From positions 114,436-178,435 of the forward strand of contig JBEIQD010000002.1 of assembly GCA_040376695.1 (NCBI GenBank): a stretch of 64,000 nucleotides of DNA, written 5' to 3'. Within the stretch, counting starts at the first letter, position 1, and every line of letters starts with the position of its first letter. The position numbers and the translations under genes are program-made. Below, in pieces: positions 7,411-61,558 of this stretch. Under the pieces are notes generated by a model. That model ran no database searches. It was not told the DNA's origin and saw nothing but the letters and a program-made list of their open reading frames with translations. Source of the DNA: Candidatus Nomurabacteria bacterium (GTDB lineage Bacteria; Patescibacteriota; Minisyncoccia; Phycocordibacterales; UBA5272).

Positions 7411-10400
7411 TTATCGGATATCGAAGGCGATAGTGCCAGTCGATGTTTCTGCTGTGTATGTTCCACTTCCCTTTTCTACCGAACTAATTCGACATGTGTT
7501 CATAAGAAGAACCTTAAACTGTTCTGGGATCATGTACTCTGTGTTAAGAACAATTGAATCCTTTGGTGTAAGCCCCTTATCTTTACGAGCATCCTGAACT
7601 GCACGCATAAGATTACGAACATCTCCTTCTGCTTGGAGTGTGTCCGTTACAGCAGTATCAAGCACACAAACTTCTGTCTGAGTTTCATCAAATGAAATTT
7701 CCTTCACGTTAAGCTCATCAAGGATTGTTGAAACATATTCCTCTCCTATCTTCTCCTTAAGAGTAAGCTTCTGAAGAGGTTGCCTTACAGCAATCTTTGC
7801 TTGTGTACGAAGTGACAGTGCTACCGTCACAAGTTCACGAACCTTTTTCATGGTAACTAATAATTCAGTATCTACTGAGAAACTCTGAGGCCAGACTTCC
7901 AGATGCACGGATTCTTTTTCACCACCAACCACGCTGTACACTCGCTCAGCAACAAATGGCATCACAGGAGCAATTACTTTTGAAAGTGTTAATAGTACGT
8001 ATGTTAGTGTTTCGTAGGCTTGCTTCTTTTCCTCGACACTCACATCTCCCTTAAGGCGATCTCGGCTCCGTCTAACGTACCAAACAGACAAGTCATCAAT
8101 GAGCTGATCAATTGGATATGTTGCCTCATCAAGCATGTAGGTGTCATACCCTTTAGTTACTTTTGCAACAACCTCATGAACTCTTGATATGATCCATCTA
8201 TCTAAAACATTTGTAGAATTTATTGTTGCTTCCATGACACCTTCTCTGTTCATCTCATAAAGTGAGAGAACATTTTCTAGCCGAGATATAACTTTCTTGT
8301 ACACATCCTCCACAGTCTTATCAGTAAATAAAACATTTTCTCCCTTAACCACAGGGCTCGACAGGAGCGCATAACGCATTGCGTCTGCTCCATATTTTTC
8401 TACAAGCTCCATCGGGTCAGTATAGTTTTTATCGCTCTTTGAAAGTTTAAGACCTGATTCCGCCATCACAAGACCGTTCACTATAACGTGCTTATATGGA
8501 GCTTTATCAAACAATCCAACCCCTAAGTTAATAAGCGAGTAGAACCATCCACGTGTTTGGTCTAATCCTTCAGCAATAAATTCGGCTGGATAGTTCTTTT
8601 CAAAGATTTCTTTGTTCTCAAATGGATAGTGAAGTGACGCAAACGGCATAGATCCAGATTCAAACCAACAATCAAAAACATCTCCAATTCGTTTATAGGT
8701 TACTCCATCAATTTCCAGTTCTATTTCATCAATATACGGACGATGAAGATTAACAGCCCCTGTTTCATCTCGCGGAACGAGTTGAGGATGCACAGGCACC
8801 ACATGGGCGTGCGCAGGAGATGTGTCTTCGTGCATCATCATATCCGCAACAATTTCCTCATCAGTACGCAAATGAGCTGCTGCTTCAAGCATCCACACAG
8901 GAGATCCGTGTGTTACAAATAGAATCTTCTTACCTTCGTATTCTTTTTCACAGTCATGCAAGACCTGCATTGTGCGGTTCATAAGATCACGATGAGATTC
9001 CCCTTCTGGTAATTTAGTGTCGAGATCCATGAAATCAGCTCGCTGACGTACATGGAACTCATCAACACTTGTACCTGAAAAGATTCCCGTATCAAACTCA
9101 CGAAGCCGCTTATCAAAAACTGATTCTGCTCCACACATCTCTTTTATAATGCGAGCCGTTTCTTCTGTTCGAAGCAATGGTGAATACACGATAATATCTA
9201 TCCCTTGTTCTTTTGCAAAGTGCCCAGCGTGACGAGCTTGTTCTTTACCAGTTTCAGTAAGGTGGTTGTGTGGGTCACCATAACTATCCAACACTCGATT
9301 AATATTACTCTGCGCTTCACCGTGACGAATAGCAAAATACGTATTCTTTGGTTTATTTTTATTCAGCGCAGCAAGCTCTTTAAGTGAGCCAATGATTTTC
9401 ATATCCCCGGCTTCATTTTTCCACACAGGAAGAGGAGCACCCCAATATCGCGAACGTGATACCGCCCACTCATGAGCACCTTCAAGCCACTTACCAAATC
9501 TTCCATCTCTAATATGTGACGGAGTCCAGCCAATATTTTTATTTTCTGAAAGAAGTTTCTCTTTCATTTTAGGGACATCAACAAACCATGAAGATGTAGC
9601 GTAATTAAGAAGCGGTGTCTTACATCGCCAACATAATGGATATGAGTGAATAATTTTATGCTTCTCAAAAAGTTTTCCGTTATGAGCTAAATACTTAATG
9701 ATCTCAATATCAGCTGACTGTGTGTCATCTTTTTGCTTTACCTTCATTCCAACAAAATCAATCACCTCGGTTGTAAATGTTCCATCCATCTTCACATGCT
9801 TGATAACTGGAATTCTGTGTAACTTTGCAAGATCCATATCCTCTGCCCCAAAAGCTGGGGCTTCATGTGCAACACCTGTTCCAGTATCAAGCGTAATAAA
9901 ATCAGCATGCCAGATTTTCCAGATATTTTCTTTATTATCAATTTCTTTATCTACAAAATACGGGAATACTGGCTTGTATGATTTTCCAACAAGCGTTGAA
10001 CCTAGAAACATATCTTTCACCTCATACTTCATATCTTTCAATACATCTTCTTTTCTTTCATTAGCAAGAATATACATTCCATCCATTCCTTCAATCGACA
10101 CCTTTATATACTGAGCCGTCTCACAAAGTGCGAGCGCTGTGTTTCCAGGAAGTGTCCACGGTGTTGTAGTCCATGCAAGTACATACGTACCTGGCTCATC
10201 CGCTAATTCAAACTTTGCAGTTACAGAAAGATCAGTCACATCATGGTATTCCATTCCTACTTCAGATTGTGCAAGTGTTGTTTCGCAACGCGGACAGATG
10301 TGCATTATTTTATATCCCTCATAAGCAAGTCCCTTTTCATACAAAGTTTTCCATGCCCACCAAATACTTTCCGTATAAGTTGAATCCATTGTCTTATATG

Positions 10401-10851
10401 CATGCTCCATATCAACAAAACGTCCAACTCGTGGAACAACTTTTTTCCATTCTTCTTCATACTGAAGAACAGAATTAAATGCATCTTGATTAAACTTATC
10501 AATTCCAAACGCCTCAATGTCTTTTTTTGAAGCAAGCCCTAATTTCTTTTCAATAAGATTTTCAATAGGAAGACCGTGACAATCCCAACCCCAAATACGA
10601 CGAACGGAGTTACCTTTCATTGTCTGATATCGAGGAATAGCATCCTTGATGGTTCCTGCGAGAATGTGTCCATGGTGAGGAAGCCCTGTAGCAAATGGTG
10701 GCCCATCATAAAAAGAGAACGATCCTTTGGGTATTTCACTTGCGGGATTTTCTACTGACTTTTCAAAGATTTTATTCTCTTGCCAGAAAAGAAGTGTTTC
10801 TTGCTCTTTCTCGTTTATGGTTTTTGGTTTAGGTAAAGTATTGTCAGACAT
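7411..10851 (-). CDS. ileS: isoleucyl-tRNA synthetase (type 2) with an inserted histidine-phosphatase (PGM-family) domain
   Basis: 1146 aa with HIGH (PHHGHILAG), a CP1 editing region, GLKLSKS, and a type-2 C-terminal domain. Between PLPVW and HRPYID it has ~225 aa instead of the ~40 in Thermus IleRS. The insert contains RHGE...SPLLRTEETA...VTHG. Confidence 0.9.
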   Translation of the reverse strand: MSDNTLPKPKTINEKEQETLLFWQENKIFEKSVENPASEIPKGSFSFYDGPPFATGLPHHGHILAGTIKDAIPRYQTMKGNSVRRIWGWDCHGLPIENLIEKKLGLASKKDIEAFGIDKFNQDAFNSVLQYEEEWKKVVPRVGRFVDMEHAYKTMDSTYTESIWWAWKTLYEKGLAYEGYKIMHICPRCETTLAQSEVGMEYHDVTDLSVTAKFELADEPGTYVLAWTTTPWTLPGNTALALCETAQYIKVSIEGMDGMYILANERKEDVLKDMKYEVKDMFLGSTLVGKSYKPVFPYFVDKEIDNKENIWKIWHADFITLDTGTGVAHEAPAFGAEDMDLAKLHRIPVIKHVKMDGTFTTEVIDFVGMKVKQKDDTQSADIEIIKYLAHNGKLFEKHKIIHSYPLCWRCKTPLLNYATSSWFVDVPKMKEKLLSENKNIGWTPSHIRDGRFGKWLEGAHEWAVSRSRYWGAPLPVWKNEAGDMKIIGSLKELAALNKNKPKNTYFAIRHGEAQSNINRVLDSYGDPHNHLTETGKEQARHAGHFAKEQGIDIIVYSPLLRTEETARIIKEMCGAESVFDKRLREFDTGIFSGTSVDEFHVRQRADFMDLDTKLPEGESHRDLMNRTMQVLHDCEKEYEGKKILFVTHGSPVWMLEAAAHLRTDEEIVADMMMHEDTSPAHAHVVPVHPQLVPRDETGAVNLHRPYIDEIELEIDGVTYKRIGDVFDCWFESGSMPFASLHYPFENKEIFEKNYPAEFIAEGLDQTRGWFYSLINLGVGLFDKAPYKHVIVNGLVMAESGLKLSKSDKNYTDPMELVEKYGADAMRYALLSSPVVKGENVLFTDKTVEDVYKKVISRLENVLSLYEMNREGVMEATINSTNVLDRWIISRVHEVVAKVTKGYDTYMLDEATYPIDQLIDDLSVWYVRRSRDRLKGDVSVEEKKQAYETLTYVLLTLSKVIAPVMPFVAERVYSVVGGEKESVHLEVWPQSFSVDTELLVTMKKVRELVTVALSLRTQAKIAVRQPLQKLTLKEKIGEEYVSTILDELNVKEISFDETQTEVCVLDTAVTDTLQAEGDVRNLMRAVQDARKDKGLTPKDSIVLNTEYMIPEQFKVLLMNTCRISSVEKGSGTYTAETSTGTIAFDIR

Positions 10852-12915: not shown

Positions 12916-13506
12916 TCAGCCTGCGACGGCGAGCTCTTTTTCAAGATGATGGGCAACAACATCCCGAAGCTTCTGTGAAGCTTCAATTGGATCAGTTGCA
13001 TCGATATACACGACCTCGGTCTTCCATGGAAGGAAACCTGTATTTAGGGCGCGGGCCACATTTCTGAAAGCCATACTCACCCGCTCATCAGCATCCTTGT
13101 GGGTGAAGATGATAAACAGTGTTGGTTTCCCAACAAGCTGTTCACGTCCGAAGGCAGCATGGAGCAAGCTTGATTCCCCAGGCGCCATTTCATGCCTCGC
13201 AAGAAGCGTGTATCCGAGCGAATCACAAATGACATGTTCGCCTCGCTCGAGCGCAGGACGAATAATCTGCGCTTCATGATCAATACGGAGCGCCCAAATG
13301 AGATGACGCTCAATCTCAGGAACGCTTGTTGCAGAATCTTCATGTAGGAGCGTTCGCAGTTTTTCCGCAAACGGTGTACCTCCTGGTTCGCGAGTCTGCA
13401 AGATATTATTTTCTCCAGTTCTCTTGGGTAAGTACTTGAGTACCGTGCAGGCATCGTTACCTGCCCTATCAACGACGCCAGCAATCACAATGAATTTTGG
13501 TTCCAT
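12916..13506 (-). CDS. thymidylate-kinase-like protein with degenerate P-loop (putative pseudokinase)
   Basis: 196 aa. The bacterial-type Tmk motif TREPGGT is conserved. The P-loop reads IVIAGVVDRAGNDA in place of IxxEGxDGxGKTT, so the Lys and Ser/Thr are replaced by Asn and Asp. GC is ~52%. Confidence 0.6.
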   Translation of the reverse strand: MEPKFIVIAGVVDRAGNDACTVLKYLPKRTGENNILQTREPGGTPFAEKLRTLLHEDSATSVPEIERHLIWALRIDHEAQIIRPALERGEHVICDSLGYTLLARHEMAPGESSLLHAAFGREQLVGKPTLFIIFTHKDADERVSMAFRNVARALNTGFLPWKTEVVYIDATDPIEASQKLRDVVAHHLEKELAVAG

Positions 13507-13636
13507 CAGAATCTCCTTGTTTAATAAAAGTACAATTTATACTTGCTCACACTAACACACAAAAATAACTATGTCGATGAAGCTCTATAGTAAAAGCCGA
13601 GTTCCACTACGTGGAACTCGGCTAGTTAATTACCTA

Positions 13637-14335
13637 TCAGATTTCAATGCCTTTTATTTGAAAGTGAGGCTTGATGTGCTTGAGCACTTCCAGATGGACA
13701 TCATCCCGTGACAGCTCGTGCTTGCCCTGGAGACATTCAACTACTTCCCACCCAAAGTGTTCAGCGTAAAAAATGCCACCCTCATGCCCCATGCGGACAT
13801 ACTCAGAATCACTTTCAACAGCATCAAGCTTGCTGCCGCCGCTATCAGAACGTTTTTGTGCCCGAGCACGAGAAAGCCAGAAAGGGATTTTGAGATAGAG
13901 CACGAACGCAGGCCTTGGAAGACCCATCGTTCCATACTCCAAATCGTAGAGCCACTTGCCATACCGCTCACGCTCTTCCGACGTACCAATCTTTCCACCT
14001 TGATGAAGCAGATTGGATTCGACATAGCGATCAAAGATCACAATGTCGTGTTCAGCAATGAGTCCCTCGAGATACTCTCGTGACTCACGCCGATCCATCG
14101 TGTACGGCAAACTCGCCGCATATGGATCAAGTTTCGCAAATTTGTACTTTGCGGCATCATCACCTTTCAGCGCTTCCCACAAAACCCAACCGCCCGTTGT
14201 CTCCTTGTAGCGAGGAAATGAAACACTTGCTACTTTGAAGCCTTTTGCCTCCAAGCTTTCCTTGAGGAGTTTGCTTTGTGTTTCCTTGCCTGCACCGTCA
14301 GAGCCTTCGATGGCAAGACTTATTTTTTTCGACAT
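13637..14335 (-). CDS. tmk: thymidylate kinase (type I/eukaryote-archaeal-like)
   Basis: Canonical P-loop ISLAIEGSDGAGKETQ, the DRY motif FDRYVESNLLHQGG, and a GLPRP lid. The start was set at MSKKISL. GC-rich. Confidence 0.75.
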   Translation of the reverse strand: MSKKISLAIEGSDGAGKETQSKLLKESLEAKGFKVASVSFPRYKETTGGWVLWEALKGDDAAKYKFAKLDPYAASLPYTMDRRESREYLEGLIAEHDIVIFDRYVESNLLHQGGKIGTSEERERYGKWLYDLEYGTMGLPRPAFVLYLKIPFWLSRARAQKRSDSGGSKLDAVESDSEYVRMGHEGGIFYAEHFGWEVVECLQGKHELSRDDVHLEVLKHIKPHFQIKGIEI

Positions 14336-14463
14336 CTCTTTCTCCTTCGCCCGCAGGCAGTAATATAAATGAACCTGCACCAAGGGTACAGGAAAGAAAG
14401 AGATGCCACAAACAAATAAAAAACAGGCACCGTCAAGGTGCCTGTTTGGAAAATTTCAGGCCA

Positions 14464-15822
14464 TTAAGCTTTCGCCACAATGTCCTGAGTGCCCCGCTTC
14501 ACATCAAACCGACCCATGTCGGATTCGTCGATGTAAACAGGGACGCCAATCTCACGGATCTGCTTGCCCATCTCTTGCGCTACTTCGCGGAGCGTAGGAT
14601 GAACAGTAGAACCAGAGCGAAGCTCCACAAGATACACCAAAGCCGGAAGGTCGCCTGTGACACGACAAGCAACTTGCTGCCCCATCGGAAGGTAGTACTG
14701 AAGGGCAGCTTCGCCATGATTGCTCACGTTTTGCTCCCACCAGTGCTTGATTTCCCTAACGAGCTTTTCCGCCTTCGCGCGAAGTTCAGGCCCCAACTGA
14801 TCAAGATACCAGTCCTGGAAACCGATATTCGGCGTCAACATTGGCATGCGCTGAATTACAGCACGTTGCCGTTGGATATCACGGAAAGATCCGAAATCGA
14901 GCGCAAACTCGAATTGGAGCGTCCCCGCTTCAGCCAAATGCTTCGGCAGTTCAGTCCGCGCTGGTCGCGAATTTATTGCCTCAGAATGTTCAAGCACAAG
15001 CTTGGCATCAAGCGTATTGCGGGTCAGGATTACTTCTTCCTTCCAATACATCGGCGAGAAATAGTAATCCTTTTCCATGCAAACTTCGCGATATGTCTCG
15101 CTTGCCGCATAACGCTTATGACCGAACGAATTCGGATGCGCCTGCTGCAAAGCTTTCTCGATCATGTTGGCAATGTCGTGTACTTCCGAAAGCGGGTGAG
15201 CTCGCAACCAGCCGAGCTTGTCCGCCGCTTGCCGCAGGTTACTTGTCCAGGCCAGGTTTGTTGCGGCGCCGGCAGGCAAAAATGCGCGAAGAATATCGAA
15301 CGCGCGGGCAGCGATCGCCTTTTCGTAGACAGCTTCCTTTTCTTCCGGCTGCATCGGATACCTTGCCTTCAACTCTTCCTTGAGTTGAGGCATGGCTTCG
15401 ATATAGAACTTGCGCAACCATTCCTGCGGATTCTCCTCAGGTGACAGCTCAAGAAGATTGATGAATACTGCGACTGCAAAGTCCTGGTACCGCGTTGAAA
15501 ATTCCTGGCCACAATAGAGAGCCCAATCCTGGATCGCCTTGGCAACCAGCATGGACACACCTTCGATAAAGATGGTTGTGTTGCCACAATCACCGATAGA
15601 TTTGTGTCCATAGCCAACGTAGTACTGAGCCATGAACTTGCCAGAGCCGACTTCTGCCAGCTTCTTCAGGTGTGCAAGCACTGATTGCGGTGACCGCGAA
15701 TAGAGCGCCTGGAGCATGGCCAAATCTTCGGCTGTGATGATCGCCCCGTCATAAAGGACGAGAACGAACGGACCTTTGGTTGGGTCACCTTGGGTGAAAT
15801 GTTTAAGTTGGCTGATGTCCAT
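14464..15822 (-). CDS. thyX: flavin-dependent thymidylate synthase ThyX, tandem-fused (two ThyX domains), with degenerate RHR motifs
   Basis: 452 aa. Both halves align to ThyX. The N-half reads YGHKS...FIEGVSMLVAKAIQDWAL...EFSTRY...LRAFLPAGAATNLAWTSNLRQAADKLGWLRAHPLSEVHDIANMI. The C-half reads FEFALDFGSFRDIQRQRAV...YLPMGQQVACRVTGDLPALVYLVELRSGSTVHPTLREVAQEM. RHR is lost in the N-half (DWA) and reads RQR in the C-half. Confidence 0.7.
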   Translation of the reverse strand: MDISQLKHFTQGDPTKGPFVLVLYDGAIITAEDLAMLQALYSRSPQSVLAHLKKLAEVGSGKFMAQYYVGYGHKSIGDCGNTTIFIEGVSMLVAKAIQDWALYCGQEFSTRYQDFAVAVFINLLELSPEENPQEWLRKFYIEAMPQLKEELKARYPMQPEEKEAVYEKAIAARAFDILRAFLPAGAATNLAWTSNLRQAADKLGWLRAHPLSEVHDIANMIEKALQQAHPNSFGHKRYAASETYREVCMEKDYYFSPMYWKEEVILTRNTLDAKLVLEHSEAINSRPARTELPKHLAEAGTLQFEFALDFGSFRDIQRQRAVIQRMPMLTPNIGFQDWYLDQLGPELRAKAEKLVREIKHWWEQNVSNHGEAALQYYLPMGQQVACRVTGDLPALVYLVELRSGSTVHPTLREVAQEMGKQIREIGVPVYIDESDMGRFDVKRGTQDIVAKA

Positions 15823-15902
15823 GAGGACCTCCTAAATATGGTTTAGATTGATGAAAAAACTACCGTACTCAATCCTACAGGTTTGTAGAAGTAAAAGCAA
15901 AA

Positions 15903-16322
15903 CTACTTTCCCGTACTTCCAAAACTCCCCGCTCCACGCTTAGTTTCAGAAAGAACTTCTGATTCTTCAACTTCCCACAGCTCAACTTTCTGAATAACCA
16001 TTTGTGCCACCTTGTCCCCTGACTCAAACGTATACGGCGTATCATTTAAATTATGAATTGGAATAAATAACTCTCCTCGATACCCAGAATCAAGAACACC
16101 TCCTAAGGTTTTAATTCCTTTTGATCCAAGAGATCCTTTATCCCAAGCAAATACGCAATATCCATCTGGTACTTCGTAGGCAATTCCTGTTGAAACCTTC
16201 ACTGTTGTATGTGGTGGAATAATTGTTTCTTCACAACAATAAATATCAAGACCTGCATCATCGTGATGGGCGCGAGTTGGAAGCTTTGCATTAACATGCA
16301 ATTTTTTCACTTTTAATTTCAT
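15903..16322 (-). CDS. dut: dUTP diphosphatase (trimeric dUTPase)
   Basis: Motifs AGLDIY, GVLDSGYRGE and RGAGSFGSTGK. Local GC is ~33-40%, unlike its neighbours. Confidence 0.9.
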   Translation of the reverse strand: MKLKVKKLHVNAKLPTRAHHDDAGLDIYCCEETIIPPHTTVKVSTGIAYEVPDGYCVFAWDKGSLGSKGIKTLGGVLDSGYRGELFIPIHNLNDTPYTFESGDKVAQMVIQKVELWEVEESEVLSETKRGAGSFGSTGK

Positions 16323-16344
16323 GTGTCTTCATTATACCAAAAAG

Positions 16345-16374
16345 AAAAAGCCCGCACCGAGGTGGGGGCTTTTG
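16345..16374 (-). terminator. intrinsic terminator between the dcd-like gene and dut
   Basis: On the minus strand, aagcccccacc-tc-ggtgcgggctt is followed by tttcttttt. Confidence 0.5.
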
Positions 16375-16378
16375 AAAA

Positions 16379-17428
16379 CTAAACGAAGTTCTTCGCAAGC
16401 TTGGGACCGCTTTGACCCTGATAAGAGCCTTTGTAAACGTCATGATTGTCGCCGCAGACATATTCGAAGCGCACCCGCGCAACGACTTGTCTATGCGTTA
16501 GCGTTAGCGGCTCCTGCACAGCCATTTCGCATGTGATTTCCCCTTTGAACCCTTGATCCACGAAACCGGCAAAGTTGTTGCGGGCTTCGATAATCCTTTC
16601 GTCCATTGGAGCGATTTCAGCAGTGATGTGCCCTGGCAAACAAAGACCTTCTTCAGTTGTTGTGATATAGAAGCGTTTTTCCTTCATGCCGATTTTCGAG
16701 TTCTCCACGAACAACGCCTTGAAAAACTCATCTTTCGGGTTCGGCTTGCTAAAAAAAGCTGGCCGATTGGTCTGCCTAGAAACATACGCAGCTGGACCAT
16801 TCACAGGTTTGAGATTCAAATGAAGGTATACCGATCCATCGCGATCAACGCGGAGGTTTTCGAATGAAATTGGTTTCCCTTCACGATCCACAATGAGAGG
16901 AGTTTTTTTGTGCTCCTCCTTAACCTGCTCTAGCGAAAGGCGTGTATCTTTGTTGAAAACACGCAACTGCGTGAGCTGATCACCTTCTGCAAAAACTCCA
17001 GGAAACGCCAAGCAACGGATCAAAGCCCACAATTCGCCACGATACCCTTTCGGGACCTGATCAAGACCAGGGTCTCCGTTCACCAAGACGCGGGTGTGAA
17101 CGAACTGACGACCAGTGGTCGAACGTGGATTTGCATACCCGTACAAATCTTCGGGAAGCTCGAGGCGTTCCTGAAGACGCGCAATGTAATGCAATCCAAC
17201 TTCGCAAGGATGTGAAGGGTGATGCATAGAAAACCCAACCTCCTTCATCATCGCCCAAACACTCTGACCCACAGAAGGTTGTTGAAAACTGTTCAAGCGA
17301 AACATTTCGCCTGTAAGACAGAGATTTAAAGAGCCAGGATTGAGTGCTTCGAGGTTGGCATTCTCGATGACTCCTTTTTCCATCAACCCTAAGAGCATAC
17401 TCTTAGGGAATGTGCCGAATTTTTTCAT
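16379..17428 (-). CDS. long-form dCTP deaminase-like protein (tandem dUTPase-fold, Pfam DCD/PF06559-like)
   Basis: 349 aa. The N-half reads RSTTGRQFVHTRVLVNGDPG...GELWAL (compare Dcd GRSSLARLG...HxTAxRIDPGWSG...LE). The C-half repeats the fold (FAGFVDQGFKGEITCEM). GC is ~50%. Confidence 0.55.
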   Translation of the reverse strand: MKKFGTFPKSMLLGLMEKGVIENANLEALNPGSLNLCLTGEMFRLNSFQQPSVGQSVWAMMKEVGFSMHHPSHPCEVGLHYIARLQERLELPEDLYGYANPRSTTGRQFVHTRVLVNGDPGLDQVPKGYRGELWALIRCLAFPGVFAEGDQLTQLRVFNKDTRLSLEQVKEEHKKTPLIVDREGKPISFENLRVDRDGSVYLHLNLKPVNGPAAYVSRQTNRPAFFSKPNPKDEFFKALFVENSKIGMKEKRFYITTTEEGLCLPGHITAEIAPMDERIIEARNNFAGFVDQGFKGEITCEMAVQEPLTLTHRQVVARVRFEYVCGDNHDVYKGSYQGQSGPKLAKNFV

Positions 17429-26770: not shown

Positions 26771-29353
26771 CTATTTATAATTAAACTTTTCCTTAAGATC
26801 TTTATAGTCCTGAACAAGACCTGCATAGGTTGGCTCGGGCTCTTCATCCGTCTGATTGTGTCTATTACCTTTTCTGCTGGTCTTATCAAAAAGATCATTC
26901 AGTTCTTTTACTTTATCTTTAGGCATTTCTGGAAGCAACGACAAACTAGACATCCTTAGATTAGCTCTATATCTACTGACGATACCCGCAAACATGATCT
27001 TTTCGACGTAGTCCTCAAGATAGTTACTCATTAGGTCATAAACAACTCCCAAATCTACACGTGAACGTTTAGGCGCTTTCTCTAGAATTTTCATTCTTTC
27101 ATCCATCTCTTCAATCTTTAGCTTTAGAGTACTAGCTGTGTCTAGTTTGGTAGATTCTAAAATTACTAATCCATCCATCTTTTTGAGATGAACCACTTTT
27201 TTAGTCTCATATTCCAACGAGTTTAGAAAATAGAGATTGTGGGTAAACACAATTACTTGATTATTTTCAGCAAGCTTCAGTATTCGCTTAGCAACATTCG
27301 TTATATTATCCTCGTCTAGACTGTTTACTGGATCATCAAAAATGTAGATACCCTCGTATTTGTTTACTTCACACTGCGCAAAGAAGTCCGCGAGCGAGTG
27401 GAGTTTCCTTTCTCCTTCGCTAAAAATATCACCTATTCTTTTATCGTCTAAACTGTAAGTTCTCTTATTCACGCCGTCTCTAGTTGTGGGCTTTATGCTC
27501 CAATATGGAGGAACAGTAAACTTTAAGCGTTTATATTCCTCAGAAAGACAGGTTTCGAATTCCTTTAATCCTGCGACTTTAGAAAACTCAGACTCTGCAC
27601 GACTTATAGATTGCTTAAGAACATATACCGCTTCGCGCTTTGCTTGTAGTTTCTCTCTTTCTTTTTTACTAGCTAAATACGAGATGATTGTTTTCTTGTT
27701 TTTCTCAATAATCGCCTCTTCTTCTAGAGGTAAAGCTTCTGCTGTCAAACTACGAACTGACTCAACTTTGTCAGTTGTTAGTTTCTCTAGTTTAGCTATC
27801 TCAACCCCAAAAGCTTCACATACAGATTCGTACTCTTTATAAAAAGTTTTTAATTTATCTATTTCCTCATCAGTCAAGCTAATAGCGGAGAAGTCCTTTA
27901 ACCCTTTTTCAATCTTTTTATAAATTCCCACTATCTCTTCAAGATTAGGAATAAGAGGTTCAGTCTTTTGTATATGACTAAACTCTGCTTCAATAGTCTC
28001 ATTGGTGCTTGCTAAGTCCTCTATCATTCTTATCTCTCTAGAAACATCCCCAGCTAGTTCGTTTATCTGACCTCTTTCTCTTCTTAGTTTACTTTCATGA
28101 TCGGAGGCTATTTCCCCGTAGGCTTTGATGAGGCTTTTCGATTCTGGAGTTGCTAAATGTTGCTGGCAATATAGGCAAGTTTCTGAAGCATATTCATGTT
28201 GAGAATCATGATCAAGTGTTTTAGTGAATTCTATACTCTTCTGAACGAAATCATTCCAAAGATCATCTTCTATCCACCCGCCTGCGACTAGTTGAGCTAT
28301 TTTGCCTCTTCCGTTTTCTTCAAATGCTTTCTTTGCAAGATTGAAATTCTCGATCCTGTCGCTGAAACTTTTTATCTTCTCCTTGTCGTATCGAAGCACC
28401 CATTCTCCCTCGTCATTCTCATCAGCAATACTTTTTAAGACATCTACAGCTTCTCTACTGGCAGTACGAATATTTTTTAAAGTCTCTTGTGGGTTATCTT
28501 TATTTAAAGTCTCAAGAGTCTTTTTTAGACTTGCCAGATGTTTCTTTTTCTTTGCGTCAAAATTAATAGTAGCAAGCTTAGCTTCAATATCTTCTTCAGA
28601 CAAATCAAGAAGGTCTGAAACATCTTCCTCTAAGATTGCTTCTGCGGAAGTAATTGAGGAATCTGTATCATCAATAGCCCTGTCTAGCACTTCTTCAACT
28701 CTTTCATAAAGATCTCTTAAGTAAGAAAAATACTCAAGCTTAAGGTGTGCAATTTTAAAAGCATTAGTTTGATCAGATTCAACTAAAATTTGAGATATAC
28801 CCCCGTCGAATATCTTAATAGGAAAACTCTTTGAGACTTCACCAGTTTTCCAGTTTAGAGTTTTACTAGCCCCGTCGAGTCCTTCGTAAACTAATGAGCA
28901 TTCTGAATTCTTAATCGCAGAAGCAAGATTGGGATACACTTGCTTGTTTATTCCGAAGAGTTTGCAAAGAGCAAGATATACGGAACTTTTACCCGCTCCA
29001 TTCTTTCCATAAAACACATTTAATCCCTTATCTAGAGCTATAGGCTCCTTTATATCCAGCAATCCGACATTTAGTATCTTAGAGATTTCTTTTATCGCCT
29101 TAGCTTCTGACCCAGACTCTGCCAACGTAACAACCTCAGTCTTCTTTGAAGAACCAGTTTTTGCCTTCTTTGGAGACCTCTTAAGCTCCAATGCAACTGT
29201 AGAAATTTCTTCATCATCAAGACAATCACTTAAAACAGACTCAACCAGAGGTTGAATCCATGCATATTTTTTATCAACACAAACAGAACTAGCCTTTATG
29301 TGGCTAATTGCGTCAGGAAGAATGATTGCGTCTTTGTCTCCTTCTGGTGGCAT
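26771..29353 (-). CDS. RloC-like anticodon-nuclease-type defence protein (ABC-ATPase with coiled-coil/CxxC hook and C-terminal HEPN-like domain)
   Basis: 860 aa with Walker A GKNGAGKSS, an ABC signature-like FSEGERK, Walker B IYIFDDPVNSLD and H-loop FTHN. The ATPase halves are split by a ~500-aa predicted coiled coil containing ETCLYCQQH (CxxC). The C-terminal ~150 aa carry RKGNRH (Rx4H). Confidence 0.55.
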   Translation of the reverse strand: MPPEGDKDAIILPDAISHIKASSVCVDKKYAWIQPLVESVLSDCLDDEEISTVALELKRSPKKAKTGSSKKTEVVTLAESGSEAKAIKEISKILNVGLLDIKEPIALDKGLNVFYGKNGAGKSSVYLALCKLFGINKQVYPNLASAIKNSECSLVYEGLDGASKTLNWKTGEVSKSFPIKIFDGGISQILVESDQTNAFKIAHLKLEYFSYLRDLYERVEEVLDRAIDDTDSSITSAEAILEEDVSDLLDLSEEDIEAKLATINFDAKKKKHLASLKKTLETLNKDNPQETLKNIRTASREAVDVLKSIADENDEGEWVLRYDKEKIKSFSDRIENFNLAKKAFEENGRGKIAQLVAGGWIEDDLWNDFVQKSIEFTKTLDHDSQHEYASETCLYCQQHLATPESKSLIKAYGEIASDHESKLRRERGQINELAGDVSREIRMIEDLASTNETIEAEFSHIQKTEPLIPNLEEIVGIYKKIEKGLKDFSAISLTDEEIDKLKTFYKEYESVCEAFGVEIAKLEKLTTDKVESVRSLTAEALPLEEEAIIEKNKKTIISYLASKKEREKLQAKREAVYVLKQSISRAESEFSKVAGLKEFETCLSEEYKRLKFTVPPYWSIKPTTRDGVNKRTYSLDDKRIGDIFSEGERKLHSLADFFAQCEVNKYEGIYIFDDPVNSLDEDNITNVAKRILKLAENNQVIVFTHNLYFLNSLEYETKKVVHLKKMDGLVILESTKLDTASTLKLKIEEMDERMKILEKAPKRSRVDLGVVYDLMSNYLEDYVEKIMFAGIVSRYRANLRMSSLSLLPEMPKDKVKELNDLFDKTSRKGNRHNQTDEEPEPTYAGLVQDYKDLKEKFNYK

Positions 29354-29820: not shown

Positions 29821-30322
29821 GATATGTAAAAGATCTGGTGGGCAAACAAAAAGCCCATTACCAGTTATGGTCGTAAGACCAACATGTGCCTTTCGACACA
29901 CGACACTCAGCATGCCCACTGATAATGGGTTCTTTATTGCTGAGTGATTTTTAAAACCATACCTTAATGTTTCCACTAAGGGTTAGGTCAGAATTACACG
30001 TTATTAAGTTGTAGTAACAAGGTTATTATAGCATTTATCAATTCCTGTCACTGCTGTTACACCAAAAGTGCTATCACAGGGCAATATACGTGTTATCACG
30101 GGAGAAAGTAGGCGCACATTAATAAGCTAAGCCCTTGAAAAATAAAGAGAAGATCAGTGAAATAGTATAAAAAGAATTACTTTTACTCTCTATGGGTCTA
30201 TTTTAAGGCTTATAGAGGGTGGGGTGGGTGGTTCCCCTTTCGTTTAGAGCTTAATTATTAGGTACCCATCGGAAACGCTATGCAATTTTTAATTTATGTA
30301 TAACAAAATCTGAAAAGTCGCT

Positions 30323-30352
30323 TGCAATTTTTTCGATTTCGTGGTACAATAT
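30323..30352 (+). promoter_or_regulatory. near-consensus sigma70-type promoter
   Basis: TTGCAA, a 17-nt spacer, an extended -10 TGG, then TACAAT. Confidence 0.55.
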
Positions 30353-30615
30353 GTCTTATCTTCCCCTGAGGGAAAGATTTTACAAAAGAATTCTCGTTTA
30401 TAGAAGGTTCCTAAATAAACGACGACATTATTTTTGATCAAAATCCACTTCGACGCATTTATATCAATGGGCATACGATAGACATTCCGTCTTACTCGAT
30501 TTGAAACAAATCTTAATTACGAGATTCTAGATTAACAATAGGAGAAATCTGCACTTTTATTCCCTTTATGAATAAATTGGTGCTTTTTACATCTCCAACA
30601 CTAGATTAATAACAA

Positions 30616-30921
30616 TTGGACATAGAACACACTACTCTCCGCTTAAGGAGCGAAGAAAATGCAGGACTAGGAAGAATCTTTAGAGAGTTAAGAAAAATAC
30701 AAAGACTTGAAGTCCTTGGAGACATAATTCTCTACAAAACTATTATTAACACTCTTTCACTAAACGGCTATGAGGTATCAGAAAGATCTATTACAAGGCA
30801 CTTTGTAAATATTGATCTAGATGACTACAACCCAGAAGATCGTCGAGAAATTATAAAAGACCTCAAAGGAGGTTCCAAGAAAATTTACGAACAAGCAAGG
30901 AGAGGTCATAAACGACCCTAA
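30616..30921 (+). CDS. hypothetical small protein with possible HTH (element regulator/excisionase candidate)
   Basis: 101 aa. LSLNGYEVSERSITRHF is HTH-like. The C-terminus is basic. Confidence 0.35.
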   Translation: MDIEHTTLRLRSEENAGLGRIFRELRKIQRLEVLGDIILYKTIINTLSLNGYEVSERSITRHFVNIDLDDYNPEDRREIIKDLKGGSKKIYEQARRGHKRP

Positions 30922-30971
30922 AATCCTCTACAAACGACGAGGACTGCCTTTGCCGACCTAATTACTAAAGC

Positions 30972-31151
30972 ATGTTTTTATCATCTAAAAACGTCTCCGA
31001 CTTTCAGGAGATTTACAAAGAAACTTTTAACGAAGAAATTTCAACAGAAGAAGCAATTGAACAAGGGGCAAAACTTATAGAGCTCATAAGAGCTGTGTAC
31101 AGACCCATCACTAAAGAAAATTACGAAAAATACAAAATAACTCATGGATAA
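30972..31151 (+). CDS. small ORF (59 aa) translationally coupled to the downstream replication gene
   Basis: MFLSSKNVSDFQEIYKETFNEEISTEEAIEQGAKLIELIRAVYRPITKENYEKYKITHG. Its stop overlaps the next start (ATGGATAA). Confidence 0.2.
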   Translation: MFLSSKNVSDFQEIYKETFNEEISTEEAIEQGAKLIELIRAVYRPITKENYEKYKITHG

Positions 31152-32430
31152 ATACAATCAACTTACAACAGAAGAACTGGCGGATATTCTCTCGCTAACA
31201 ATAAAGGAGGATAAGGAAAATAAAGTGGCGACTTTCCTTTGCCAACTATCGGCATTCACTGAGGACTCTCAGTTCAATGTTTTATTTAACGCCCCTTCGT
31301 CATCAGGTAAATCTTATATACCTTTAGAGATAGCAAATCTATTTCCACAGGAAGACGTTCTGAAAATTGGGAACTGCTCTCCGACCGCTTTCTTTCATGA
31401 GCAAGGAGAGTACGATAAGGCAACAAATACAACTATGGTAAATCTAGAAAGAAAAATTCTCATATTTCTAGATATGCCACACACTCAGCTTTTAGAGAAA
31501 TTGCGTTCCCTTTTATCTCATGATGAAAAGGAAATGGTTTCAAAAATTACAGACAAAAGCGAAAAAGGTGGACACAGAACAAAGACAGTAATTCTAAGAG
31601 GTTATCCTTCTGTGATTTTCTGCTCAGCAGGATTCAATATTGACGAACAAGAGTCAACGCGATTTCTACTTCTTAGTCCAGAATCTACACATGAGAAGAT
31701 ACAACAAGCTATTGATCAAACAATTAGACGGGCTTCAAACTTAGAAAGCTACGAAGAGTGGCTCAATGCCGACCCAAGAAGGCAACTACTCCGAGAAAGA
31801 ATTGTAGATATTAAAAGGTCTCTCGTGGGAGATATACAAATATCTTCTGAGGGGCTTGTTAAAGAACTATTCATGCAAAATAAGAAAAGCTTGAAGGCAA
31901 GAGATCAGAGAGACATCAAAAGATTTGTCGCTTTAATTAAATCTTTTGCTTTGTTAAATCACTGGTGGAGAAAACAAACTAAGACTGGCATAATTGCCAA
32001 TGAAAATGATATCAGACAGGCATACGAGATATGGAAGAAGATTTCAGTATCACAGGAGTTTAATTTAGCTCCTTATGTCTACGATCTTTACAAAGATATT
32101 ATTATTCCTCTTTGGAAAGAAAAGAAGGTCGAGGTCATGAGTGACGAATTTAATCTTGATAAGCGTTATGGTATCTCTAGGTATGAAATACTACAGCGTC
32201 ATTACGACTTACACAAAAGAATGCTGGACGGATATAAGCTACGAACAGAAATATTAAGGGTGTTAGAAATAGCAGGTCTCATAACTCAAGAGCAAGATGT
32301 AAATGATAAAAGAAAATATCTAGTTTTCCCTTCAGTTGAAATTGAAGAAGAGTATAGTGTGGAGGAAGGTGGGGTGGCTAGCATTGTGAACACAAAATAC
32401 ATGCCCGTGTTTGCTGAAAATAATGCTTAG
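31144..32430 (+). CDS. SF3-helicase-like replication protein (phage/plasmid primase C-terminal-type P-loop NTPase)
   Basis: Walker A NAPSSSGKSY, Walker B ILIFLDMPH, and motif C VIFCSAGFN. 428 aa. Confidence 0.45.
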   Translation: MDKYNQLTTEELADILSLTIKEDKENKVATFLCQLSAFTEDSQFNVLFNAPSSSGKSYIPLEIANLFPQEDVLKIGNCSPTAFFHEQGEYDKATNTTMVNLERKILIFLDMPHTQLLEKLRSLLSHDEKEMVSKITDKSEKGGHRTKTVILRGYPSVIFCSAGFNIDEQESTRFLLLSPESTHEKIQQAIDQTIRRASNLESYEEWLNADPRRQLLRERIVDIKRSLVGDIQISSEGLVKELFMQNKKSLKARDQRDIKRFVALIKSFALLNHWWRKQTKTGIIANENDIRQAYEIWKKISVSQEFNLAPYVYDLYKDIIIPLWKEKKVEVMSDEFNLDKRYGISRYEILQRHYDLHKRMLDGYKLRTEILRVLEIAGLITQEQDVNDKRKYLVFPSVEIEEEYSVEEGGVASIVNTKYMPVFAENNA

Positions 32431-32553
32431 GTATATTATAAATATGCGAAACCATAAGATTAACCTTGATATTTGTAGCCAAAGATGGGGTAACAGTACT
32501 TGTGGTTTCGCGATTACAAGTATCATGCTGTTGCCCCTTTTTTGGTACAAGAT

Positions 32554-34176
32554 ATGAAAAAATTAAATAACGAAATTGAGTATTTTCTATATGCTCGCAA
32601 ATCATCAGAAAGTGATGATAGGCAAGTTCAATCTATAGATGATCAGATAGATAGACTAAAAGAATACGCTTCGCGTGTTGGTATTAAAATTAAAAAAGTC
32701 TTTATAGAAGCAAAGTCTGCTAAATTGCCAGGCAATAGACCAGTGTTCGCTGAAATGATGGAAGGAATAAAAGCAGGTAAGGCTCAAGGCATTCTGTGTT
32801 GGCAGATTAATCGTCTATCTCGTAATCCTGTAGATGGAGGAATGATTAGCTGGATGCTTCAACAAGGAATAATAAAATCTATCCAAACAACGGAAAGAGA
32901 ATACAAACCTGAAGATAACACTTTACTTTTAAGTGTTGAAACTGGTATGGCGAATCAGTTTATTATTGATCTAAAGAAAAATGTTCGGCGAGGAATGGAC
33001 GGCAAGGCGCAAAGAGGAGAGTATCCTACAAAGCCCCCTCTTGGTTATAAGAATGATCGTCTTAACAAGACGATTGTTAGTGATGAGGAAAGATTGCCAA
33101 TGATTAAGAAAATGTGGGACATGCTTCTTTCTGGAAACTACAGACCTCCAATGATAGTAAAGATAGTAAACGAAGAGTGGGGATTTAGAACTCCAAGAAC
33201 TCCCAAAGGAGGAGATAAGGAAATATCTAAATCTACCATCTACAAATTATTCAACAACATATTCTATGCTGGAGTATTTGAATGGCATGGAGAAATTCTG
33301 CAAGGTAATCATAGGGCAATCATCACACTAGATGAGTATGATAAAGCTCAGAGAATTTTAGGTAAAAAAGGTAAGCCACGATTCTCTAAACATGAACATG
33401 CATACACTGGCGAAATTCAGTGTGAAGAGTGCGGTTGTTTGCACACTGCAAGTTTGAAGTCTAAAGTGCTATCTAATGGGGAATCAAAATCTTACGGTTA
33501 TTACTACTGCACGAGAAGAAAGAAGAATCTAAATTGTAGCCAAACGGGAAAACTAACAACTCAGGAATTGGAAAATCAGATAGACGCGGAACTGAAAAAG
33601 TGTCAGATACACCCTAGATTTCTACAGTGGGCTCTAGACTATCTACAAGAAAGGAAGGAAGTTGATTTTGAAAACAAATCTACTATACGCGAACAACAGG
33701 AAGCAACATATAACAAGATTCAGGGTGAGTTAAGCAATCTCTCAAAAATGCTTTATAAGGAACTCATAAGTGAAGAGGAGTTCCTAAGTATGCGAGATGA
33801 TTTACGTTCACAATCTGCAAAAGTAAAATCAGCTCTAGATAATACCGAGAATGAATCCGCCAAATGGCTTGAGCTTACTCAAGAGTTTTTCCAATTCTCT
33901 GCCTACGCACGAGACCGCTTTAACGATCCTGAAGCAACAGCTCAAGAAAAGAAAGCTATTTTCCGTGCTTTAGGTTGGAACTTTAGCATAAAAGATAAAG
34001 TACTCCGTATTTCTAAGCACAAATGGATAGAAACTGTAGAAAACGAGTATCCATCTCTAGAAAAGAGAATCACTGCGTTAGAACTGGATAAAAACCTTGC
34101 TGTTACTGAACGAACCAAGCAAATTAGCATGATTCGTCTCGATTGGTGTGCCTATCGAGATTCGAACTCGAACTGA
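32554..34176 (+). CDS. large serine recombinase (integrase)
   Basis: N-terminal resolvase-type catalytic domain (YARKSSESDDRQ...CWQINRLSRN), a recombinase domain, and a Cys-rich zinc ribbon (CEECGC...CTRRKKNLNC). The last 33 nt overlap tRNA-His antisense. Confidence 0.85.
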   Translation: MKKLNNEIEYFLYARKSSESDDRQVQSIDDQIDRLKEYASRVGIKIKKVFIEAKSAKLPGNRPVFAEMMEGIKAGKAQGILCWQINRLSRNPVDGGMISWMLQQGIIKSIQTTEREYKPEDNTLLLSVETGMANQFIIDLKKNVRRGMDGKAQRGEYPTKPPLGYKNDRLNKTIVSDEERLPMIKKMWDMLLSGNYRPPMIVKIVNEEWGFRTPRTPKGGDKEISKSTIYKLFNNIFYAGVFEWHGEILQGNHRAIITLDEYDKAQRILGKKGKPRFSKHEHAYTGEIQCEECGCLHTASLKSKVLSNGESKSYGYYYCTRRKKNLNCSQTGKLTTQELENQIDAELKKCQIHPRFLQWALDYLQERKEVDFENKSTIREQQEATYNKIQGELSNLSKMLYKELISEEEFLSMRDDLRSQSAKVKSALDNTENESAKWLELTQEFFQFSAYARDRFNDPEATAQEKKAIFRALGWNFSIKDKVLRISKHKWIETVENEYPSLEKRITALELDKNLAVTERTKQISMIRLDWCAYRDSNSN

Positions 34177-34219
34177 GGGCTCCACAAGCCCGCGTGCTAA
34201 CCATTACACTATAGGCACC
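34144..34219 (-). tRNA. tRNA-His (anticodon GTG) with encoded G-1 and CCA
   Basis: Manual fold: 7-bp acceptor GTGCCTA/TAGGCAC preceded by G-1. D-loop AATGGTTA. Anticodon loop TTGTGGA. T-loop TTCGAAT. A73-CCA. One C-U mismatch at 27-43. Confidence 0.75.
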
Positions 34220-60205: not shown

Positions 60206-61297
60206 TTAACGATTAAGTGGCATGAGAAGATATGTAAAACTAATATCTTTGTTACCTCGTATAAACATTGGACGATTAGCTGTACTAAACATACAAATAA
60301 TCGTTCCTCCTTCAATATGAGATAAAACATCTAAAAAGTATCTATTGTTATATTTCACCTCTATATCATCCCCCACTTTTTCCCCTGAGATAGTGTGAGT
60401 TACCTGGCCTACAGCTTCATTTCTACTATGAAAAGTTACTTTTCCTTCCGTGAATACACACTCAACTTGAGAATATTGTTCGTTAAAGAATGTTGTAAGC
60501 GTTAATGTCTTTTGAAGCTCCTCTTTAGCTAACGTGACGGTTGTAGTGAATTCCTTAGGGAACAGCTGCCTATAGTCAGGAAATTGACCAGTAACGGTAT
60601 GTATCGCTAGGGTTAGGTTTGATGTACTGAAAGATAAAATACTCTCATGTTGTGAAAGTGTAAATATTTCATCTTCTTCATTAAGAATCTGAAGTATATC
60701 TGCTATGTGTTTCTGTGGAATAAGAATAGAACATTCTAAGTCTGTAGTATTTTGTATTGTTTTTTCAGCTAATCGATATGAATCTGTTGCTACTGTATAA
60801 ATAAGATCATCTTTTGTATAAAGATACACGGAAGCAATTTCTGGTTTAATATCTGTGGTGGCTGCACAGAAAGAAACCTCTTTTAAAAGAGTATTTATAT
60901 TTTCTTTTGAAAGCGTTCCTATTGCTGCACCTTGAGCAGGAAGAGTTGGAAAATCCTCATATGGTGTTGTTTTAATCTCAACAACTCCTTTATCTGTTGT
61001 TATTGAAAAAACACCGTCCTCCACCTCACACACCAGAACTGTATCGAGTGATTGAAATGTAGAAAGAATTCTCAGGAACGCTTCTCCTTGTAAAATACAG
61101 TTTCCATTTACAAGACCTTTAACAGGGATACTCTTCTCACAAAATAATTCGAGATTTGTTGCTCGTAAAGTTAAAAGATGAGTATCTAACTCAATATGAA
61201 TATCTTGAAGGTAGTTTTGTGACTGCTGTTTACTACGAGCACGTGATACTTGTTGAACAGCTTTTATAAATACCTCTCCTCTGCATTCGAATTTCAT
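60206..61297 (-). CDS. dnaN: DNA polymerase III beta subunit (sliding clamp)
   Basis: 363 aa with a three-domain clamp pattern, directly downstream of dnaA. Confidence 0.85.
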   Translation of the reverse strand: MKFECRGEVFIKAVQQVSRARSKQQSQNYLQDIHIELDTHLLTLRATNLELFCEKSIPVKGLVNGNCILQGEAFLRILSTFQSLDTVLVCEVEDGVFSITTDKGVVEIKTTPYEDFPTLPAQGAAIGTLSKENINTLLKEVSFCAATTDIKPEIASVYLYTKDDLIYTVATDSYRLAEKTIQNTTDLECSILIPQKHIADILQILNEEDEIFTLSQHESILSFSTSNLTLAIHTVTGQFPDYRQLFPKEFTTTVTLAKEELQKTLTLTTFFNEQYSQVECVFTEGKVTFHSRNEAVGQVTHTISGEKVGDDIEVKYNNRYFLDVLSHIEGGTIICMFSTANRPMFIRGNKDISFTYLLMPLNR

Positions 61298-61554
61298 AGT
61301 ATCTAGTATATATATAATATGATATTAAGTATAGGTCTGTGGATGGTGTGGGAATGCTAAAAAAGCCTTATTTTATAAATATTTTTTAGGAATTTATAAT
61401 GTAGGTGTAGGTATATAATAAGAAAGTAGTTGTGGGTAGATAACGTGTAATTAAAAATAGTTGTTAATAAAGAGGGTGGTTATTACGAAGATATTAATCT
61501 GTTATCCACAACAATATCCACAACAGTGTAAAAAGAGACCTTAAAGGTCTCTTT
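61298..61554. promoter_or_regulatory. candidate oriC: AT-rich dnaA-dnaN intergenic region with DnaA boxes
   Basis: TTATCCACA at 61502-61510. ATATCCACA at 61514-61522. Degenerate TGTGGATGG at 61338-61346. AT-rich tract around 61305-61335. Confidence 0.5.
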
Positions 61555-61558
61555 TTAC
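61527..61558 (-). terminator. hairpin terminator at the end of dnaA
   Basis: aaaaagagacc-ttta-aggtctcttttt. Confidence 0.55.

Follow-up and report, generated by a model that had tools for sequence, protein, structure and literature searches.

Many bacteria rely on flavin-dependent thymidylate synthase (ThyX) and have no other thymidylate synthase. The enzyme is a drug target, and because its active site is built from three subunits, mechanism and cooperativity have been difficult to dissect. The canonical enzyme (PF02511, EC 2.1.1.148), exemplified by Thermotoga maritima TM0449, Mycobacterium tuberculosis Rv2754c, and PBCV-1 A674R, is a homotetramer. Each of its sites draws on three subunits in three roles (T. 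maritima numbering): role A supplies the Arg-His-Arg (RHR) motif and Arg174, role B the His53/Thr55 loop and Arg165, and role C the Glu86-Ser88-Arg90-Tyr91 loop along with Arg147, which we take to be a further role C residue. In one site of M. tuberculosis ThyX, subunit A contributes RHR (95-97) and R199 (T. maritima R174), subunit B contributes S71 (T55) and R190 (R165), and subunit C contributes Q103, S105, R107, and Y108 (E86, S88, R90, and Y91) together with R87 (PMC6514825). H53 has been placed on 'monomer-3' and R78 stabilizes the reduced flavin (PMC11940539), while R174 activates deoxyuridine monophosphate (dUMP) and S88, R90, and Y91 aid methylene transfer (PMC8316439). The subject of this work is a gene for a fused, two-domain ThyX in a Candidatus Nomurabacteria bacterium, in which these roles appear to be divided between the two halves of a single chain. 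It lies in a stretch of 64,000 nucleotides, hereafter the window, that covers positions 114,436 to 178,435 of the forward strand of contig JBEIQD010000002.1 (assembly GCA_040376695.1).

Tandem ThyX has been touched on before. Most Chloroflexi are reported to have a duplicated ThyX and no other thymidylate synthase, and this protein was described as 'not characterized' (Valas & Bourne 2009, PMC3224940). Chlamydial ThyX is described as too divergent for ThyX phylogenies (PMC6171736), and ThyX activity has been assayed with the enzyme from Chlamydia trachomatis (PMC3498832). The literature search on fused, tandem, or duplicated ThyX, on ThyX of the candidate phyla radiation (CPR)/Patescibacteria, and on chlamydial ThyX returned nothing beyond the Chloroflexi remark of 2009 and the statement on chlamydial divergence; no paper describing a complementary split of the active site was found, nor did sequence searches of the PDB find a solved structure of the fused family. 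Chlamydia ThyX, with about 529 amino acids (aa), is presumably of the duplicated type.

The fused gene (14464..15822, minus strand) was identified from the listing of open reading frames (ORFs) and encodes 452 aa followed by a stop codon. The Pfam model Thy1 matches the protein in two stretches with 74.6 bits (E 1.1e-20), above its gathering threshold. The N-half, aa 1-258 (15049..15822, minus strand), is the putative supplier of roles B and C; taken alone as aa 1-262 it reaches 52.7 bits against Thy1, and hhalign pairs it with canonical ThyX at a probability of 87% (E 4e-6), aligning aa 62-234 with T. maritima 42-203. The C-half, aa 259-452 (14467..15048, minus strand), is the putative supplier of role A. 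Alone, as aa 263-452, it passes Thy1 marginally, with 25.5 bits against a cut-off of 24.8 and over profile positions 105-188 only, and its hhalign match is weak (E 0.002). The two halves show no significant internal repeat when aligned with each other by hhalign (probability 0.3%, E 0.19); the duplication is apparent solely through the fold and the matches of the halves to the canonical family.

The fold was examined in a whole-chain AlphaFold model built from the family alignment, which has a predicted local distance difference test score (pLDDT) of 89.6 and a predicted template modeling score of 0.86. In this model, the order of strands and helices occurs twice, once per half. Foldseek comparison of the whole chain with the PDB returned ThyX structures only, those of M. 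tuberculosis, C. glutamicum, PBCV-1, H. pylori, and T. maritima, each spanning about half of the query. A separate model of the C-half (aa 256-452; pLDDT 88.4) had 155 matches in the PDB at E<=1e-3; the best 50 are all ThyX-family chains with TM-scores of about 0.55-0.61 over about 190 columns and include, at rank 48, the ThyX-like methylase PolB. Because both models match ThyX structures, both halves are taken to have the ThyX fold. An earlier note on this DNA, made from its letters alone, had read the 452-aa protein as two ThyX domains in one chain and had made that claim depend on recovery of the fold from both halves by profile or structure search; Pfam and Foldseek have each recovered it, and the claim is borne out.

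Residue equivalences were taken from the profile-profile alignment (hhalign) to T. maritima ThyX, whose reference sequence was verified against PDB 1kq4; the coordinates that follow are all on the minus strand. In the N-half, H73-K-S75-I-G-D78 (15589..15606) corresponds to H53, T55, and E58 of the flexible loop that serves folate and flavin stacking and binds the phosphate of flavin adenine dinucleotide (FAD; PMC11940539, PMC6514825). E107-F-S109-T-R111-Y112 (15487..15504) corresponds to E86, S88, R90, and Y91, the loop for dUMP binding that also aids methylene transfer (PMC8316439, PMC11940539). R179 (15286..15288) is equivalent to R147 of T. maritima and R172 of M. tuberculosis, and N195-L-R197 (15232..15240) supplies the equivalents of N163 and R165, the latter being R190 of M. 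tuberculosis, an FAD-phosphate contact from subunit B (PMC6514825). Where the canonical enzyme carries R74 and R78-H79-R80, the N-half has K95-A-I-Q-D99-W-A101 (15520..15540), with K95 at R74 and D99 at R78, such that RHR is replaced, and the position of R174 falls in a gap.

The C-half holds what the N-half lacks. R314-D-I-Q-R318-Q319-R320 (14863..14883) aligns R314 with R74, D315 with Q75, and R318/Q319/R320 with R78/H79/R80, and thus represents the RHR motif (RQR here), which contacts the FAD ribityl and phosphate groups, flavin N1/O2, and dUMP (PMC11940539, PMC6514825). It is followed by AVIQRMPMLTP, with no S-x-R-Y, and Q375 occupies the position of R147. Further along, R402-S-G-S-T-V-H408 (14599..14619) provides the equivalent of R174, the dUMP-activating Arg (PMC8316439), as R402, and the probable equivalent of H178 as H408. 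The chain ends in a tail, R-F-D-V-K-R443-G444-T-Q-D-I (14479..14511), that is conserved in the family and has no counterpart in canonical ThyX. The motif of a single-domain ThyX, RHR followed by the Ser/Arg-Tyr loop, is absent from each half and complete only when the halves are combined. In this respect, the earlier note was accurate: sequence and alignment agree with its statements that the N-half has lost RHR (QDW stands instead) yet keeps the downstream STRY, that the C-half has RQR without the Ser/Arg-Tyr segment, and that neither half has a full canonical motif for binding the dUMP phosphate.

Conservation was assessed over a set of 145 relatives that had been clustered near 50% identity, the most distant of them being about 36% identical to the window protein. 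In the C-half, R314, D315, R318, R320, R402, and H408 are each present in all 145, and position 319, the middle of the RHR motif, is His in 125, Gln in 19, and Asn in one. Because the C-half consensus of the family is RHR, the RQR of the window protein is a minority variant, and loss of function through this His to Gln exchange was rejected given that 19 of the 145 relatives carry Gln under the same constraint. In the N-half, S75, S109, and R111 are invariant, followed by E107 (142), H73 (141), Y112 (140), R179 (137), D78 (127), and R197 (118). The catalytic set, comprising the equivalents of H53, R78, E86, S88, R90, Y91, R147, and R174, is found in one copy per chain and is 94-100% conserved. 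At the positions of the lost residues, the N-half has D99 (118/145), a variable residue or Pro at positions 100 and 101 (Pro at 101 in 82/145), and the gap at R174; the C-half has the non-catalytic M326, L328, T330, Q375 (141/145), and L392 (108/145) at the reciprocal positions. As mapped by alignment, each residue that canonical ThyX uses for catalysis or ligand binding occurs once and only once, and the residues are divided between the halves according to the subunit roles of the tetramer. The split is a complementary partition across the whole family and not decay. Comparison with the orthologue that is 93% identical gave a ratio of nonsynonymous to synonymous substitution rates (dN/dS) of 0.05 in the N-half and in the C-half, and both halves are under strong purifying selection. 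The earlier note had called the two motifs degenerate; the loss of a motif from each half stands, but degeneracy does not, as purifying selection maintains one fixed pattern throughout a very large family.

The size of that family is evident from a collection of 5.8 billion proteins, in which more than 4,400 relatives were found, nearly all of about 450 aa. They fall, as representatives at 50% identity, into 1,900 clusters at E<=1e-3 and 485 at E<1e-30. Few relatives carry a name, and the named matches, called 'FAD-dependent thymidylate synthase', are all from Patescibacteria. A relative is present at 564 genome loci, the best 80 of which come almost entirely from CPR/Patescibacteria bins, the closest being the 93% identical orthologue. 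Jumbo phages encode homologs of the same architecture, among them Vibrio phages BONAISHI and vB_VmeM-Yong and Tunturiibacter phage Tunturi_5. In total, 72 viral loci carry a homolog, many on contigs of more than 100 kb and with giant-virus bins among them, and the split pattern recurs in 62 of the 65 full-length ORFs from these loci. ORF269 of BONAISHI, a 'thymidilate synthase-like protein', shows the same split as the window protein. The fused form is a large family, mostly of Patescibacteria with jumbo phages and giant-virus contigs in addition, that is already annotated as ThyX and is mechanistically undescribed. As a separate observation, metagenome contigs with P0236 (L082 and L083) encode a fused ThyX of 531 aa beside NAMPT, a NUDIX/cytidylyltransferase (NadR-like) gene, a 5'-nucleotidase, and small unannotated ORFs, a context that looks like a phage nucleotide-metabolism module.

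The absence of a complete ThyX motif set from either half could also be expected of an inactive relic or pseudo-enzyme, or of an error of assembly or gene calling. Such an origin is highly improbable for a protein with this many homologs of uniform length, with 485 clusters at 50% identity below E 1e-30 and 564 genome loci, with a dN/dS of 0.05, and with catalytic residues each kept exactly once. Family size, conservation, and dN/dS effectively refute the pseudo-enzyme and artefact explanations, and family size and dN/dS likewise rule out the artificial joining of two genes.

How the two halves may come together follows from the symmetry of the canonical enzyme. In a 222 tetramer in which subunits B, C, and D are generated from A by the x, y, and z axes, a site with D in role A would take C in role B and B in role C. 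The sites of A and D would then share the subunit pair B/C, with the roles of these two swapped. By the residue mapping, the C-half retains the role A set only and the N-half the role B and role C sets only. With C-halves in the places of A and D and N-halves in those of B and C, z would be the sole true two-fold axis, and a homodimer of the fused chain, with its two N-halves and two C-halves, would form a pseudo-tetramer. Given the 222 symmetry and the complementary partition, each homodimer would contain two complete FAD and dUMP sites and two that are extinct. We infer the dimeric assembly, the assignment of halves to roles, and the two FAD per dimer from symmetry and sequence. The working enzyme would thus probably have two shared sites rather than four. 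The asymmetric composite active site that the earlier note had offered as one explanation is supported, in that the residues are kept once each and divided in the manner of the canonical subunits.

The two extinct sites need not be idle. They might be re-used as regulatory or additional ligand pockets, for reduced nicotinamide adenine dinucleotide phosphate (NADPH), for feedback by deoxythymidine triphosphate (dTTP), or for folate, in which case the fusion would add control and not merely halve the number of sites. Room for such re-use is left by some of the dead-site positions being conserved rather than drifting: the frequencies of D99, Q375, P101, and L392 given above are unexpected for neutral decay, and dN/dS is equally low in both halves. 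Conservation of this kind can be purely structural, however, and no ligand-binding motif was recognized at the replacement positions, which leaves pocket re-use a doubtful proposal, slightly less probable than the change of substrate considered below.

The surroundings of the gene are those of the dTTP pathway. It lies within a co-directional cluster on the minus strand that consists of a long deoxycytidine triphosphate (dCTP) deaminase, a dUTPase, the fused ThyX, thymidylate kinase, and a second Tmk-like gene, followed by argS. The dUTPase (dut, 15903..16322), the supplier of dUMP, matches the Pfam dUTPase model at 5e-25 and TIGR00576 with 120 bits, above its cut-off. The dCTP deaminase (16379..17428), which would supply the deoxyuridine triphosphate, is a 349-aa protein of the two-domain type with DCD_N and DCD_C (PF06559 1.9e-25; PF22569 3e-13; PF22769 in two stretches), and thus is a second tandem-duplicated enzyme in the cluster. 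Relatives of the Dcd2 type are found mainly in CPR and Chloroflexi (PMC10733785). The locus of the closest relative has no tblastn match to this deaminase at E<=1e-5 and carries a 214-aa ORF where the deaminase gene would lie. Thymidylate kinase (tmk, 13637..14383), the consumer of deoxythymidine monophosphate (dTMP), matches PF02223 at 1.5e-17 and NF005923 at 2e-35, below the equivalog cut-off of the latter. The second Tmk-like protein (12916..13506; 196 aa) matches PF02223 at 2.7e-12 over aa 13-97 only and has a degenerate P-loop, IAGVVDRAGNDA, which lacks GK[ST]; this protein could be a pseudo-kinase or have a different function. Within 5 kb of the fused gene, the best 80 of the 564 loci contain a tmk-like gene in 53 cases, dut in 25, and dcd in 14. 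The wider neighbors include the housekeeping genes nusG, rplK, and argS beside dcd, dut, and tmk. Neither thyA nor a canonical thyX is present in the 64-kb window.

Within the same region, the G+C content at third codon positions (GC3) is 0.44-0.58 in thyX, both tmk-like genes, and dcd, as compared with 0.25-0.40 in dut, argS, rplK, nusG, ileS, polA, and dnaA, and the raised G+C of thyX recurs in the closest orthologue. The high GC3 of these genes (12916-17428) suggests that thyX, the tmk-like genes, and dcd were acquired horizontally. A 388-aa ORF runs antisense within thyX (14278-15444, plus strand) and is in all likelihood not a gene in its own right but a shadow ORF that arises from high GC3.

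On this evidence, it is likely that the protein is a working flavin-dependent thymidylate synthase that converts dUMP to dTMP, formed by tandem fusion of two specialized ThyX domains, with the catalytic activity itself inferred. An enzyme that has taken on a new function would differ in acting on another pyrimidine nucleotide, be it deoxycytidine monophosphate, uridine monophosphate (UMP) as in PolB, or by hydroxymethylation, or in using another one-carbon donor. The earlier note had raised such a change of substrate or reaction on account of the incomplete motifs. The idea draws on the strong divergence from characterized ThyX, as the match to the NCBIfam thyX equivalog model TIGR02170 reaches 33 bits (cut-off 87.9) and covers the N-half only, and as searches of PDB sequences with either the fused protein or a 38-sequence family profile returned no ThyX chain. 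The low TIGR02170 score and the missing PDB match mean that the fused ThyX is a distant ThyX relative. Pairwise BLAST against T. maritima ThyX likewise gave no match. Also in keeping with a new function are the family-specific invariants D315 (for Q75), W338-Y339, Q375-Y376, and the C-terminal RG tail, the UMP/dUMP methylase PolB among the fold matches of the C-half, and the homologs of jumbo phages and giant-virus contigs, as viruses of both groups often modify their DNA bases. Against this, the residues that read and activate the uracil are kept, the equivalents of the uracil- or dUMP-contacting S88, R90, R174, and R78 being invariant and that of Y91 nearly so (n=145). The neighboring genes produce dUMP (dcd and dut) and consume dTMP (tmk), and nothing indicates a gene cluster for a nucleoside antibiotic. 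In addition, most Chloroflexi are reported to have no thymidylate synthase other than a duplicated ThyX (PMC3224940), which may belong to the same family. The ordinary conversion of dUMP to dTMP is favored over a new substrate because of the purifying selection, the dcd-dut-thyX-tmk context, and the constancy of the uracil-contacting residues. A changed reaction is thus unsupported by the residues, by the neighbors, and by the related loci with tmk-like or dut genes, and we regard it as unlikely.

Several observations weigh against the proposal of a dUMP-methylating enzyme with shared sites. The sequence support for the C-half is weak by both Pfam and hhalign, the TIGR02170 score lies below the equivalog cut-off, and the PDB sequence searches recovered no ThyX. 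The position of R74 is basic in both halves (K95 in 141/145; R314 in 145/145), contrary to what a simple partition would lead one to expect; which subunit role R74 belongs to varies by species, with R87 of M. tuberculosis coming from subunit C (PMC6514825). D315 stands invariant at the position of Q75, W338-Y339 and Q375-Y376 are conserved family-wide, phage members included, and the tail R-F-D-[VI]-K-R443-G444-x-Q-D-I is kept even in Vibrio phage BONAISHI, with R443 in 145/145; none of these has a canonical counterpart. The tail region of the whole-chain model has low confidence (pLDDT 52-83). The assembly and the assignment of roles rest on sequence mapping and a symmetry argument. As 64 kb of the genome is in view, a further thymidylate synthase may be encoded elsewhere. 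To our knowledge, no member of the family has been assayed. There is a small chance that D315, W338-Y339, Q375-Y376, and the R443-G444 tail adapt the enzyme to another one-carbon donor, reductant, or sugar, or make the extinct sites regulatory. CPR bacteria and large viruses often lack folate biosynthesis, and an adapted donor or regulatory pockets would, if real, fit such hosts.

Other features of the window lie apart from the thymidylate cluster. An isoleucyl-tRNA-synthetase-like protein of 1,146 aa (7411-10851, minus strand) has a histidine-phosphatase domain (PF00300, aa 507-660, E 4e-32) inserted between the two parts of its class I catalytic domain. At about 30000-34200, a stretch of low G+C (0.36-0.37) and reversed GC skew ends at a large serine recombinase (32500-34176, plus strand) that overlaps tRNA-His (34144-34218, minus strand), and an 860-aa AAA_13/SMC-like ATPase (26771-29353, minus strand) adjoins it; this stretch is probably an integrated mobile element. 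The genes dnaN and dnaA are adjacent at 60206-62892 (minus strand), so the window adjoins the chromosomal replication origin.

Should the split-site reading be correct, the fused enzyme would be a naturally asymmetric ThyX suited to structural and kinetic study, with half of the sites off and the subunit roles carried by different domains, and a clean case of subfunctionalization after domain duplication. The route to dTMP would also be accounted for in a very large proportion of Patescibacteria, as well as in numerous jumbo phages and giant viruses. Both the 'RHR...S' motif rule and the TIGR02170 equivalog model overlook the whole family.

Among known systems, the duplicated ThyX of Chloroflexi, as described, shares the tandem duplication with the window protein. 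The homologs of jumbo phages and giant viruses are closer: they have the same two-domain length and share AKAIQD...GQExSTRY in the N-half and RD.QRHR, ELRSG.TVH, and the KRG.Q tail in the C-half. Those of cultured phages are 26-34% identical to the window protein and those of viral contigs up to 49%; several are annotated as hypothetical and, unlike the window gene, the viral genes have no dcd-dut-tmk cluster. PolB (PDB 4p5a), the UMP/dUMP C5-methylase of polyoxin biosynthesis, has the ThyX fold in common with the C-half, but it is a single domain in a nucleoside-antibiotic pathway, whereas the window protein has two domains and a dTTP-pathway context. With canonical homotetrameric ThyX, the fused protein shares fold, residue set, and pathway context. 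It departs from the canonical enzyme in its two domains per chain, in never having RHR and S-x-R-Y within one domain, in Gln in place of H79 (in the window protein), in the invariant Asp in place of Q75, in the additional C-terminal RG tail, and in its score below the TIGR02170 cut-off. Where the canonical tetramer has four sites, the pseudo-tetramer of the fused form is predicted to have two.

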